DNA from: Turneriella sp.
GTDB taxonomy: Bacteria > Spirochaetota > Leptospiria > Turneriellales > Turneriellaceae
Direction: 5' to 3'
Assembly (NCBI GenBank): GCA_965279515.1
Contig: CBDIID010000003.1
Span: 3,616,001 to 3,680,000 of the forward strand
Length of the DNA: 64,000 nucleotides
Below are positions 2,580 to 30,508 of the stretch, piece by piece. The notes beneath the pieces were generated by a model. It did not search any database. It saw nothing but the letters and a program-made list of their open reading frames with translations, and was not told the DNA's origin. The translations under genes were made by a program, and so were the position numbers. Position 1 is the stretch's first letter. Each line of letters opens with the position of its first letter.

Positions 2580-2659
2580 AGGGCGCGCTCGTTCACCTTA
2601 TGCACAGTGGCAACGCTATTACGGATTTTCAAGGAGTGATTGCCTTTCATAGTGGGCCA

Positions 2660-3277
2660 ATGTCCTCTCCCCAGCGTTATCCCGTGTTAATCATCCAGGG
2701 ATTTCTCGCCCCCACCCTCACGAACTTTGTCCTGAAGACCCGCCTGAAGGCTGAGGGTTTTCTCGCCGAAGATGTGCCGCTCGCAGGCCTCAATGCCGGC
2801 GATATCCGCGAATCGGCGCGCGTCGTCGAAATGAGCGTCAATGCCATGCTGACGCGCGCTGGTACGAAAAAGGTCGACCTGATCGGCATCAGCATGGGCG
2901 GGCTGATCGGCCTGCACTATTTGCGCAAGCTCGGGGGTGACGAATATGTGCGCCGTTTCGTCGCGATCGGTACTCCTTTTAAGGGAACACATTTCGCGCG
3001 GCTGATGAAAGCGCTGACATTCGGGCGCGCGCCCGGCGCCGAGCAGATGATCCCCGGTTCTGATTTTCTCAGCGACCTGCACGACCATGACGGTCAGCAT
3101 CAGGCTGAAATTTACAGCCTGCACACCGATGCGGATGCCTTTGTTTCCGAAACCGCCGCCACGATGGACAAGGTCGAGCTCGTGAAATCGCCGCACGGTG
3201 TCTGGCCCGCAGGGCATTATACGCCGCTTTTTTTGAAAGAAGATTTTAAACTCATTAAGGAAATTCTGCTGAAATGA
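2660..3277 (+). CDS. Alpha/beta hydrolase (lipase/esterase-like)
   Basis: PVLIIQGF, nucleophile elbow GISMGG, IGTPFKGT; likely start ATG 2660 inside ORF 2600..3277. Confidence 0.85.
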   Translation: MSSPQRYPVLIIQGFLAPTLTNFVLKTRLKAEGFLAEDVPLAGLNAGDIRESARVVEMSVNAMLTRAGTKKVDLIGISMGGLIGLHYLRKLGGDEYVRRFVAIGTPFKGTHFARLMKALTFGRAPGAEQMIPGSDFLSDLHDHDGQHQAEIYSLHTDADAFVSETAATMDKVELVKSPHGVWPAGHYTPLFLKEDFKLIKEILLK

Positions 3278-3981
3278 AACTCGAAAAAACCGGCGACCCG
3301 AAGAAAACACCCGCGGTCTTTCTGCACGGTTATGGTGCGCCTCCCAGGCTCTACCTGGACTTTGTCAGGCGCCTCGCGGAAAATTATTATGTCTACGTGC
3401 CTGAAATCTTCGGCATGAACGGTATCTGCCGCCGTGATTTTTTCGGCAACGTCGAAGCTTTGAGCCAAATGATGCGTGAGCATGATCTGGGGCAGAGCCT
3501 GGTTGTCGGCCATTCGTACGGCGCACTTGCGGCGATGCATCTGGCCGCGGAGTTTCCGTCGCTGCAGCGCGCCATCGCTGTAAATCCGCTGCTGCCTGAA
3601 ATTTTTACCCCTGATAAATTCAAGCTGCAGCTCGGTAACATGCAGCGTGACCTGAAATACGCCACGGGTGAGCTGCGCGGTATGCTCGCGAACCCCGGCG
3701 TCGGCATTGCTTATGGCATCAACGTCATTGCAAACCCGCTGGGGTATATCGAAGGCGCGGCGCGTGCCGTCGCGAGCCGGCTGCCTGAAAAACGCAGCGA
3801 GGTTCCCGTCGAACTCGTCTACGCCGATCTCGATACGCTTTTTCATATTGAGAACGACGATCTCTCCAAATGGCGCGGCGTGTTGCCGAAGCTGAAATTC
3901 ACACCGGTACCCGATTACAGCCATAACTGGCTGATCTACCATGGCTCGTATGCCTACGATACGATGAGGGGAATTTTGTGA
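3274..3981 (+). CDS. Alpha/beta hydrolase
   Basis: VFLHGYG and GHSYG motifs; ATGA overlap with the upstream hydrolase. Confidence 0.85.
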   Translation: MKLEKTGDPKKTPAVFLHGYGAPPRLYLDFVRRLAENYYVYVPEIFGMNGICRRDFFGNVEALSQMMREHDLGQSLVVGHSYGALAAMHLAAEFPSLQRAIAVNPLLPEIFTPDKFKLQLGNMQRDLKYATGELRGMLANPGVGIAYGINVIANPLGYIEGAARAVASRLPEKRSEVPVELVYADLDTLFHIENDDLSKWRGVLPKLKFTPVPDYSHNWLIYHGSYAYDTMRGIL

Positions 3982-4445
3982 CCCCACCCCGGCCTTCGGC
4001 CACCCCTCCCCACTAACGTGGAGAGGGGTTTTCGGAAAGTATGGCGATTAAGAACAAAGCCCGCAGTCTTCGAAAGAGTATGACTGATGCAGAAGAGGTG
4101 CTCTGGGAAAAATTGCGAAATCACCGTTTTCATGGTCTTCAGTTTAGGAGACAATATCCGGTTAGTCAGCGATACATTTTGGATTTTTACTGCGCTAAGA
4201 TTAGATTAGGGATTGAGATCGACGGAAAGATTCATGAGGGCAAACATATGAAAAGAAACGACACATTACGCACCGAAAGTCTAAATGCAAAGGGTATTAG
4301 AATTTTGCGATTTTCAAATTCCGAGGTCGTCGAAAAACTTCAGTTAGTTCTAGAGAAGATATTCTCACAGTTTCCCCCCTCTCCACGTCAGCCGTTGGCC
4401 AAGAGGCCACCGGCCTATTGGTGGGGAGGGGGTGAGGGGGTGGGG
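3982..4445. mobile_element. Putative mini-element: DUF559 gene between inverted C-rich/G-rich hairpin repeats
   Basis: Terminal inverted repeat CCCCACCCC (3982-3990) / GGGGTGGGG (4437-4445); internal hairpins at 4003-4028 and 4375-4432; flanking direct repeat (G)TGA at 3978-3981 and 4445-4448. Confidence 0.6.
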
Positions 4446-4448
4446 TGA
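4041..4448 (+). CDS. DUF559 / Vsr-like PD-(D/E)XK endonuclease-domain protein
   Basis: ARSLRKSMTDAEEVLWEKLR...FRRQYPV...YILDFYC...IEIDGKIH...GIRILRFSNSEV matches the DUF559 pattern; AT-richer than its neighbours; the C-terminal tail is read through the right-hand repeat. Confidence 0.9.
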   Translation: MAIKNKARSLRKSMTDAEEVLWEKLRNHRFHGLQFRRQYPVSQRYILDFYCAKIRLGIEIDGKIHEGKHMKRNDTLRTESLNAKGIRILRFSNSEVVEKLQLVLEKIFSQFPPSPRQPLAKRPPAYWWGGGEGVG

Positions 4449-5380
4449 GAAAAACCCTCAAAGCCATCCGCGACAAGTTGCCCTCGGGCGCGCAGATTTC
4501 GGGCGCGGTGCAGGGGGTGATCGGTGACAAGCTGCCGAAGCGCTTCGCTACGGAGATGGCGTTTTATGCCGAAGGTAAGGCACTGCCGGCCGACTATATC
4601 GCCGGCAAAAAACATGCTGTGATCTTTGTGCACGGCAGCGCCGACACCGAACTCGGCTGGAATGTCAAACCCGGTGAAATGAATTTTGCAGAGCGCTTAG
4701 TCCACGACTTTCCGGTTGAGGCGCTCTACCTGCGCTATAACAGCGGCCTCGCGGTGAGCGACAACGGTGAGAAACTCGCCAGGCTGCTGAGCGATTTCGC
4801 CGCCCGCAATAAAGCCCTGCGCAGCCTGACCTTGATTGCTCACAGCATGGGTGGCCTTGTCGTCCACTCGGCGATCTATCACAGCCGGGCCCAGAATAAA
4901 ACCTGGCTTAAAAAACTGAAGCAGGTGTTTCTGCTCGGCACACCGCATGCCGGCGCGCCGCTGGCGCAAATCGCCGAAAAGGGCGAACAGATTCTGCAAT
5001 TTATTCCAAACCCGTTCACGCTGATCGCCGCGTCTGTGATTGGCCTGAGAAGCCGCGGTCTCAAAGATCTCAGCCGCGGGCAAAAGGGTCTACCGGCCGA
5101 GGGCAGCATTCTGCAGCAGGGCGTGAAATATGTATTTATTGCCGGGGGTGTGCAGAAAAAGGCATCGGGGGTGATGAATCGCCTCATCGGTGACGGTATG
5201 GTGCGCAGCCACAGTGCGGTGCAGGGTCAGCAGGGGGATGTCCCCTGGCATAAGCGGGCTCTGCTCTGGCTCAAAAAATCAGCCGATGTCAGGGTCGAGA
5301 ATCTGCCCGGAATCAACCATCTGGCTCTGAGGACATCCCCCCAGGTTTATGCCGTGATACACAGCCACTTCAGCTCGTGA
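4445..5380 (+). CDS. PGAP1-like alpha/beta hydrolase
   Basis: VIFVHGS, YLRYNSG, AHSMGGLV, LGTPHAGAPL, GDGMV and INHLAL motifs. Confidence 0.85.
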   Translation: MRKTLKAIRDKLPSGAQISGAVQGVIGDKLPKRFATEMAFYAEGKALPADYIAGKKHAVIFVHGSADTELGWNVKPGEMNFAERLVHDFPVEALYLRYNSGLAVSDNGEKLARLLSDFAARNKALRSLTLIAHSMGGLVVHSAIYHSRAQNKTWLKKLKQVFLLGTPHAGAPLAQIAEKGEQILQFIPNPFTLIAASVIGLRSRGLKDLSRGQKGLPAEGSILQQGVKYVFIAGGVQKKASGVMNRLIGDGMVRSHSAVQGQQGDVPWHKRALLWLKKSADVRVENLPGINHLALRTSPQVYAVIHSHFSS

Positions 5381-29260: not shown

Positions 29261-29315
29261 CCCCTCCCCAACCCCTCCCCTATTAGGGGAGGGGTGCCCG
29301 AAGGGCGGGGTGGGG
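29261..29315. repeat. Nuclease-free copy of the C-rich/G-rich hairpin repeat
   Basis: Reverse complement CCCCACCCC-GCCC-TTC-GGGC-A-CCCCTCCCC-TAATA-GGGGAGGGG mirrors 3982-4028. Confidence 0.8.
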
Positions 29316-30508
29316 TTTCCGCCGCGGCGAATCTTTCTAACCGCGAACGCCATCTCGTCGCCCTGTGGCGCGCCTATCTCGACCATCCCACGGCGCGGCA
29401 GGCCGACAAGTGGCTCGCGCAGTATTTCCGCGATCACAAGGCATACGGTAAGAAAGACCGCGCCTGGTACAGTGAGGAATTTTTCTCCCTGCTGCGCCGG
29501 GCCGTGGCTTTTTTGCCCGAAGATAAGACCAAAGATGCCGGGACGGTTTGGCACGAGTTGAAACTCGCCCCTATCCCCCAGCCCCTTTCCCCTAGTCAGG
29601 GGAAAGGGGAGCACAGTGCTCCTCCCCCAGACTTGGGGCGAACGCTGCCCCAAACATGGGTCGAATGGCTGAAGAACTCTTCACTGCCTGACGCAGCGAT
29701 TCCCGGTTTTCTGGAGCAGCTTGCGACCAAACCCCCTTTGTACCTGCGTGCCAATTACCCCGACAAGGTCAGTGAGATCGAAACCGAACTCAGGGCGGCC
29801 GGTTATGCCGTCACGACGACAAAGCGCGATTCGGGACTTGTCACCTTTGCCGTGCAGGGGCAGAAGCCGATCTATGAACTGGCCTGCCTGAAAGCCGGTC
29901 TCATCGAAATCCAGGACCTGGCCTCGCAGCTTTTGGGCGAGGCTGTCGATGCCCACCCGGGCATGGCGGTGTGGGATGTCTGCGCGGGCGGCGGCGGCAA
30001 AACGCTGCAGATCGCCTCGCAGATGCAGAACCGCGGCGTACTCTATGCCTCTGACATCCGCGACTACAAGCTCGACGAATTGAAGCTGCGTGCCCGCCGG
30101 GGGGGATTTCATAATGTGCGCCGGTTTGTTTACGACGCAGAGACTTCGCCCGAGCTTACAAAAGAAGTCAAAAACTCGGGCGGTTTTCACCGTATTCTCG
30201 TCGATGCGCCTTGCACCGCTTCGGGTACTTTGCGCCGCAACCCCGACGTGCGTTACCGCATCATGCCTGGTGACCCCGAAAAGTTCTCTGAGCTACAGCT
30301 GAAAATTCTGACTGCGGTGCACCCTCACCTGAAGCTTGGCGGCAAACTCATCTATGCAACCTGCAGTGTTTTCAGGGAAGAGAATGAAAAAGTTGTGGAA
30401 AAATTTTTGCTTGGCTGTCCCGGCTTTTCCCTCAGTGAGGCAAAGTGTGTCGGCTCGCCTGAGATCGACGCAGACACCATGTTCTTCGCCGTTCTCGAAA
30501 GGAAATGA
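29294..30508 (+). CDS. RsmB/NOP-family RNA (cytosine-C5) methyltransferase
   Basis: EIQDLASQL, VWDVCAGGGGKT, LVDAPCTASGTLRRNPD, YATCS, EENE; start codon uncertain. Confidence 0.9.
   Translation: MPEGRGGVSAAANLSNRERHLVALWRAYLDHPTARQADKWLAQYFRDHKAYGKKDRAWYSEEFFSLLRRAVAFLPEDKTKDAGTVWHELKLAPIPQPLSPSQGKGEHSAPPPDLGRTLPQTWVEWLKNSSLPDAAIPGFLEQLATKPPLYLRANYPDKVSEIETELRAAGYAVTTTKRDSGLVTFAVQGQKPIYELACLKAGLIEIQDLASQLLGEAVDAHPGMAVWDVCAGGGGKTLQIASQMQNRGVLYASDIRDYKLDELKLRARRGGFHNVRRFVYDAETSPELTKEVKNSGGFHRILVDAPCTASGTLRRNPDVRYRIMPGDPEKFSELQLKILTAVHPHLKLGGKLIYATCSVFREENEKVVEKFLLGCPGFSLSEAKCVGSPEIDADTMFFAVLERK
29568..29638. repeat. In-frame C-rich/G-rich hairpin repeat inside the RsmB/NOP gene
   Basis: CCCCTATCCCCCAG-CCCCTTTCCCCT-AGTC-AGGGGAAAGGGG followed by CTCCTCCCCCAGACTTGGGG. 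Confidence 0.7.

Follow-up and report, generated by a model that had tools for sequence, protein, structure and literature searches.

The genome of a Turneriella sp. carries, within the window analysed here (the whole stretch of 64,000 nucleotides), a 40%-GC gene for a DUF559 protein, a predicted nickase (4041–4448, forward strand) framed by inverted hairpin-plus-tail repeats (3982–4029 and 4375–4445). DUF559 is a common orphan domain. Genes of this family are linked to such repeats in this genus and beyond it, and enzyme clades match repeat subtypes. That the nuclease and its repeats form a specific partnership is very probable. Since the lineages of the enzyme correspond to the types of repeat from one related species to the next, it is likely the agent of their spread, and probably a necessary one. 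The pairing of gene and repeats is real and likely mobile; it resembles REPIN-RAYT systems but belongs to none of the known families against which it was tested.

The cassette and the class of its repeats

The genome that holds the window is designated G000 and its congeners G001 onward, the genus set comprising 14 genomes. Features in the window are as follows.

3274..3981, forward strand: upstream host alpha/beta hydrolase gene, its stop TGA (3979–3981) directly before the cassette
3982..4029, reverse strand: left repeat unit, with C-rich tail (3982–3990), mini-hairpin linker (3991–4001) and main hairpin (4002–4029)
4041..4448, forward strand: DUF559 gene, with Vsr/EDxHD-fold nuclease domain (4041–4370) and residues E18, D48, E59, D61, H65 and D74
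4375..4445, forward strand: right repeat unit, with hairpin (4375–4432), linker TGA (4433–4435) and G-rich mirror tail (4436–4445)
4445..5380, forward strand: downstream host alpha/beta hydrolase gene, its GTG start being host sequence
29261..29315, no strand assigned: two-tailed repeat without a gene, of the same class but of the TA-loop subtype, unlike the cassette
29568..29638, no strand assigned: repeat without a gene, AAGTCT subtype with TCG..CGA at its ends, in frame in coding sequence

The open reading frame matches DUF559 in Pfam (PF04480, E 2e-33) and its core has 39.8% GC, compared with 53% for the window. A first-pass annotation made from the letters alone, which described an AT-richer DUF559 frame between two related inverted repeats, is accurate in these respects: the repeats read as quoted there, the outermost 9 bp at either end (3982–3990 and 4437–4445) are perfect inverted copies of each other, and an ATGA stop/start overlap is present upstream at 3274–3277. 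Three consecutive alpha/beta hydrolase genes with tightly coupled stops and starts, then a STAS protein gene, occupy window 2600–5380.

Both hairpins carry a mismatch, T4382·G4425 on the right and C4009·A4022 on the left; the latter is T·G on the minus strand, where the left unit conforms to the class II C-G-G triplex pattern of PMC4666352. The left 47 nt are identical between G000 and G001, while the DUF559 gene is 70% identical (dN 0.155, dS saturated). The right loop is about 30 nt longer than that of G001 and contains a nested extra stem (window 4387–4420) absent from G001. The DUF559 frame reads through the right repeat and ends at TGA 4446–4448; a single additional C, also absent from G001, moves the frame and brings the DUF559 stop into overlap with the start of the following gene.

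These repeats belong to the BoxC/PIT/TM intrastrand-triplex class, since in sequence pattern a C-rich/G-rich hairpin is followed by a mirror G-rich third strand. The likeness to BoxC/PIT/TMECO (PMC4666352) extends from the order of parts (C-rich stem, loop, G-rich stem, G-rich mirror third strand, optional stem mismatch) to inverted pairs combining two linker types and a patchy copy number; unlike there, several subtypes coexist here, each tracking a DUF559 clade. In G000, a search with the exact TMECO pattern gave 0 matches. First known in the 1990s, BoxC/triplex repeats have been linked to genome instability, and the accessible text of PMC4666352 names no partner enzyme; within that same text, Holder et al. 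2015 report no transposases near triplex motifs.

One detector found 114 half-units in the genome, versus 0 on one strand of a 2-Mb order-4 Markov control, and merging of detectors gave approximately 108 repeat clusters genome-wide, 19 of which (about one sixth) lie within long reading frames. Scored as mirrors of their own stems, 136 ends gave 8.99, compared with 8.20 for shuffled tails and a maximum of 8.36 in 1000 shuffles; tails thus mirror their own stems beyond all shuffles, as expected of a third strand. The window's subtype (CAC) has a fixed stem mismatch in 33/35 copies, C·A on one strand and T·G on the tail strand, whereas 95/145 stems in distant loci have no mismatch. T·G as a general Vsr-type signal was rejected, being found in only 21/145 stems in distant loci and 38/174 in G000 clusters.

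The gene-less repeats at 29261 and 29568 had been taken for non-autonomous copies of the cassette element, which their TA-loop and AAGTCT subtypes, unlike the cassette ends, contradict. These two subtypes are abundant in G000 (38 TA-type and 29 AAGTCT-type ends); no DUF559 gene matching either was found there, and the AAGTCT type flanks none of the 24 DUF559 hits in the genus. Derivation of gene-less doublets by internal deletion of this cassette was considered and is not supported (6 spacers; 1/12 end comparisons reached p 0.02). A scan for promoters and terminators gave chance-level results only, and Rfam gave two chance-level matches with no family near threshold.

Linkage of DUF559 genes to repeats, and of enzyme clades to repeat subtypes

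Searching the genus recovered 24 DUF559 hits in 11/14 genomes. A triplex motif lay within 250–300 nt of 23/24, the sole miss being a fragment at a contig end, and the same detector was positive at 68/80 DUF559 loci from GTDB (the best 80 of 397, the top two of which repeat congener loci), against a background of 6/219 control windows and 1/23 genus Y1 transposases. A stricter hairpin detector gave lower counts: 19/24 DUF559 loci and 5/23 Y1 loci in the genus, and 21/30 loci versus 2/106 controls in the phylum. The expectation that other DUF559 genes carry the hairpin repeats is borne out. Strong DUF559 matches (E below 1e-15) occurred in 13/16 phylum genomes with at least five pattern matches, compared with 32/235 others, a contrast inflated by kin that are not independent. 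A single genome may contain as many as 6 DUF559 genes, dispersed over different sites. In E. coli, an exact TMECO lies approximately 200 nt downstream of a DUF559 gene that, from its position after a sapF-like gene, is likely ycjD.

Repeat subtypes were labelled before the DUF559 tree (49 rows) was built, and each of five subtypes corresponds to a supported clade; two matched pairs each share a site and so are plain orthologues, and four genus rows (CTCACC types) fall in none of the supported clades. The window's CAC clade (support 95/93) occupies 3 sites and that of the second DUF559 gene of G000 occupies 4, so cassettes do move. Subtype abundance follows the matching clade, as the proposed check of copy number against DUF559 presence brought out: CAC copies number 32, 33, 23 and 18 in the four carriers, versus 0–6 in the other ten congeners. 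In a host tree of two genes and 12 rows, the carriers fall in three lineages (G000 with G001; G008, whose sister G003 has 6 copies; and G004, whose sister G005 has 2).

Genes and repeats also occur apart. The second DUF559 gene of G000 lies between direct doublets of a different subtype and its end pattern has 3 matches, all at its own locus, so that this repeat is not spread. G011, at 99% completeness, lacks DUF559 but has 33 hairpin matches; G006 and G010 likewise lack it, with 7 matches each. At an ABC-transporter site in G000 (C3:3433482-3433773), an internally deleted DUF559 without catalytic core lies between GCATGC-type repeats; G009 and G005 have a full DUF559 gene at this site, and G004 a doublet of another subtype.

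A transposase encoded elsewhere in the genome (RAYT, IS91-type or DDE) could in principle move the repeats: RAYTs are known movers of REPINs (Bertels and Rainey, bioRxiv 10.1101/2021.07.10.451892), and G000 has one Y1 transposase. The palindrome of that transposase, however, occurs only at its own locus, with the nearest BoxC-type cluster 5 kb away, and Y1 transposases across the genus have AT-centred palindromes of their own, with the triplex detector positive at 1/23 as given above. None of 19 ORFs between close repeat clusters, 3 of them without a Pfam hit, matched a transposase family. In a search of the genome that covered the Y1 and ISL3 families, no ISL3 transposase was found in G000, and on this coverage the explanation is most improbable. 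The possibility raised beforehand that a RAYT or TnpA flanked by the same repeats accounts for them has thus given way to Y1/RAYT-like genes with unrelated palindromes. One such gene, with AT-centred palindromes (G000:C3:2616100-2616560), lies near the position of a DUF559 cassette in G007; the two systems may share hot spots. A GIY-YIG partner was also considered and rejected, the one match lying inside a 670-aa frame.

Titles and abstracts, from a literature in which subscription journals are mostly missing, gave no link of DUF559 or ycjD to BoxC/triplex repeats, and the supplementary gene-context tables of PMC4666352 may bear on the novelty of that link. The present analysis itself tested, at the level of subtypes, the match of enzyme clade with repeat abundance; it also found that the target duplication fails and excluded the Y1 transposases.

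Insertion sites

Both genes flanking the cassette were recovered in 11 congeners (G012 yielded a single flank and G010 no orthologue). Alignment of these relatives, as had been advised, revealed presence and absence of the cassette: G001 has it at the same site and 10/11 lack it. The exact empty allele that was forecast, a GTGA stop/start overlap, was seen in none of these 10 nor in 3 metagenome junctions; as the relatives are 74–87% identical, junctions may have been rewritten after insertion. The nearest cassette-free relatives, G008 and metagenome locus L047, have a decayed hairpin of another subtype at the hydrolase end. L047 does have a GTGA stop/start overlap, but at a later position, several codons on, where it ends the decayed hairpin. 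In groundwater contigs of a further relative, the site is spanned by a join of 98 unlisted letters, which makes the junction unreadable.

According to the first-pass annotation, GTGA on both flanks was a target duplication. G4445, the first base of the right copy (4445–4448), is also the last base of the 9-bp inverted repeat, which leaves no more than TGA as a possible duplicate; the GTG of this copy is the host's own start codon, being GTG also in cassette-free G003, G006, L046 and L047, and the upstream hydrolase stop is compatible with the T(A/G)A end flank of the repeat subtype. The sole other filled genome, G001, has TTAA on the left and TGAA on the right. Among 44 two-ended copies in G000, paired automatically and with a few ends mis-set, direct duplications beside the C/G runs numbered 0/44 at 4 bp and 2/44 at 3 bp (0.77 expected). 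At 2 bp there were 6, mostly palindromic CG of one subtype, and a 2-bp CG duplication is conceivable for the AAGTCT subtype. Inverted 2-bp flanks numbered 21, compared with 10.5 in shuffled data, and end flanks are specific to the subtype: T(A/G)A, (T/A)AA, TCG or TGT. Duplications of GTGA length or longer were rejected (a 5-bp match was found in 4/44 at loose offsets, a count without control).

Eleven sites were also compared among G004, G005, G007 and other congeners, and by eye no flanking duplication was seen at any. At 4/11 (icd, L043, C100 and C26) the position of the cassette or doublet is taken in the counterpart by an unrelated palindrome; at four further sites the counterpart has another subtype or a shorter unit, and at the remainder the repeat is missing, replaces a short coding stretch or lies within a larger insert. 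Site L044 in G004 coincides with a contig break, and L082 had no colinear match.

It is against these junctions that the form first proposed must be judged, an autonomous IS-like element with terminal inverted repeats and a 4-bp target duplication. The outer 9 bp, perfectly inverted, speak for such an element, as do TGA on either flank, the presence and absence of the cassette and the GTGA overlap in L047. Yet duplications in the 44 copies number 0 at 4 bp and 2 at 3 bp, none was seen by eye at the 11 sister-species sites, flanks are inverted instead, G001 has TTAA on its left, and the L047 overlap ends a decayed hairpin further on. Nor is the layout fixed, as terminal repeats would require: in 78 distant loci, tails point inward in 22 and outward in 6. 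The traits of IS elements and MITEs, a target-site duplication and fixed outward-facing ends around a transposase, are accordingly absent, and this reading is largely refuted and very improbable. As to the broader proposal of an autonomous REP-type element mobilised by DUF559, it is supported in part: a target duplication and fixed ends find no support, its link between gene and repeat holds, and none of the three results that had been named as counting against it came true.

Selection on the host could also hold gene and repeats together, the enzyme binding or cutting folded repeats for termination, RNA stability or chromosome upkeep, with copying as a by-product of repair. Different species retain the gene at one site with dS saturated, and one intergenic spot has four hairpin types in six congeners compared (L151–L155 versus L088; none in G002), as if any hairpin were favoured. 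Frequent gain, loss and decay, with 10/11 congeners lacking the cassette at the window's site, argue against such upkeep, as do the internally deleted copy in G000 and cassettes in frame inside larger genes; we regard it as quite unlikely.

The nuclease and a possible nick-and-copy route

The model of the DUF559 protein has pLDDT 89.9, and its structure matches are 3HRL followed by the homing endonuclease I-Bth0305I (3R3P, E 4e-4, TM 0.62), with Vsr at E 0.06; by sequence, the EDxHD homing endonuclease match has E 0.41. The Vsr-type residues are intact: E18, D48, H65 and D74 are invariant and D61 is at least 90% conserved (31 rows). Pfam match and Vsr-type fold are found in place of the HUH motif and catalytic tyrosine of Y1 enzymes. 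The domain has 110 residues, starting at residue 3, and as a lone nuclease domain is unlikely, judging from its family, to join strands. Vsr, DUF559 and 3R3P have been grouped together (PMC3424549), and YcjD is related to Vsr (PMC1189080). The DUF559 fold had been said to have no accepted mobility role, which overlooks the EDxHD homing endonuclease family (PMC3239194, PDB 3R3P). I-Bth0305I has in common with the window's enzyme a Vsr-like catalytic domain and a mobile setting, but here there is no intron or intein host, no N-terminal DNA-binding region beside the 110-residue domain, and no tie to a single target gene.

With this fold, DUF559 might instead be an orphan very-short-patch repair nickase for T·G mismatches, the repeats spreading otherwise and the gene merely travelling along. 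It belongs to the same family group as Vsr, and Caulobacter VsrA carries DUF559, is linked to a cytosine methylase and has a proposed role in mismatch repair, the SOS response depending on it (PMC12907096); five proposed VsrA active-site residues, mapped by motif order, are E18, D48, D61, H65 and D74 here. The shared fold, the T·G mismatch fixed in the window's subtype and the existence of repeat-rich genomes without the gene accord with a repair enzyme. A repair nickase does not predict the match of clade and subtype, abundance following the clade, or the scattered copies, at most 6 per genome; moreover, the gene is framed by repeats between hydrolase genes with no adjacent methylase, and most stems elsewhere lack a mismatch. 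We consider such a role unlikely.

Our preferred reading, held with somewhat better than even confidence, is that the cassette is a DUF559 gene framed by BoxC/triplex repeats of matching subtype, where nicking by the enzyme would lead to copying by repair. DUF559 would nick DNA at folded hairpins or repeats; host recombinational repair, rather than the enzyme, would then copy from another repeat, the shared C/G tails serving as homology. The repeat, and more rarely the whole cassette, would thereby be copied to new sites without target duplication, preferably to sites already holding a hairpin. This route fits the lack of duplications, the swapped subtypes and the variable layouts, although as a specific mechanism it is put forward tentatively.

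Such a system would resemble REPIN-RAYT in working with one long-lived gene and many gene-less copies, but its chemistry would be that of a homing endonuclease. REPIN-RAYT (10.1101/2021.07.10.451892) offers close parallels: inverted doublets of approximately 100 bp with variable spacers, gene-less and many per genome (44 two-ended copies here), and a lone nuclease gene that is flanked by its own repeat and has kept its location in different species. Here, by contrast, the enzyme has a PD-(D/E)XK Vsr fold, not HUH/tyrosine, the repeat has a third-strand tail, and about one sixth of clusters lie in long frames. Nor is the gene non-jumping and congruent with the host tree: a single clade of the cassette is spread over 3 sites and three host lineages, although it has long been retained at single sites.

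More speculatively, DUF559 and BoxC-type repeats could constitute a widespread mobile system of their own, in which a minimal Vsr-fold nickase guided by DNA shape, not by a long target, homes its repeat into hairpins, evicts other palindromes and diversifies as matched subtypes. If so, DUF559 and BoxC/triplex repeats would both gain a function that is testable directly in E. coli, and a repeat-plus-single-enzyme system like REPIN-RAYT would have had a second origin, from an unrelated nuclease. Some DUF559 ‘fusion’ proteins would also be explained as in-frame cassette insertions. Whole DUF559 cassettes, including repeats, were found in frame inside large genes at L030 (G013) and L071 (G112), genes that by inspection look like restriction-modification methylases. 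DUF559 genes have been found enriched among predicted inversion targets (PMC9881135), and ycjD alternates with eefRABCD at one site (PMC12817139). The window's repeat subtype also frames approximately 200 bp of other AT-rich cargo at two loci in G001, L142 (250–550, C61) and L148 (C146), the former including a possible 25-residue hydrophobic peptide frame.
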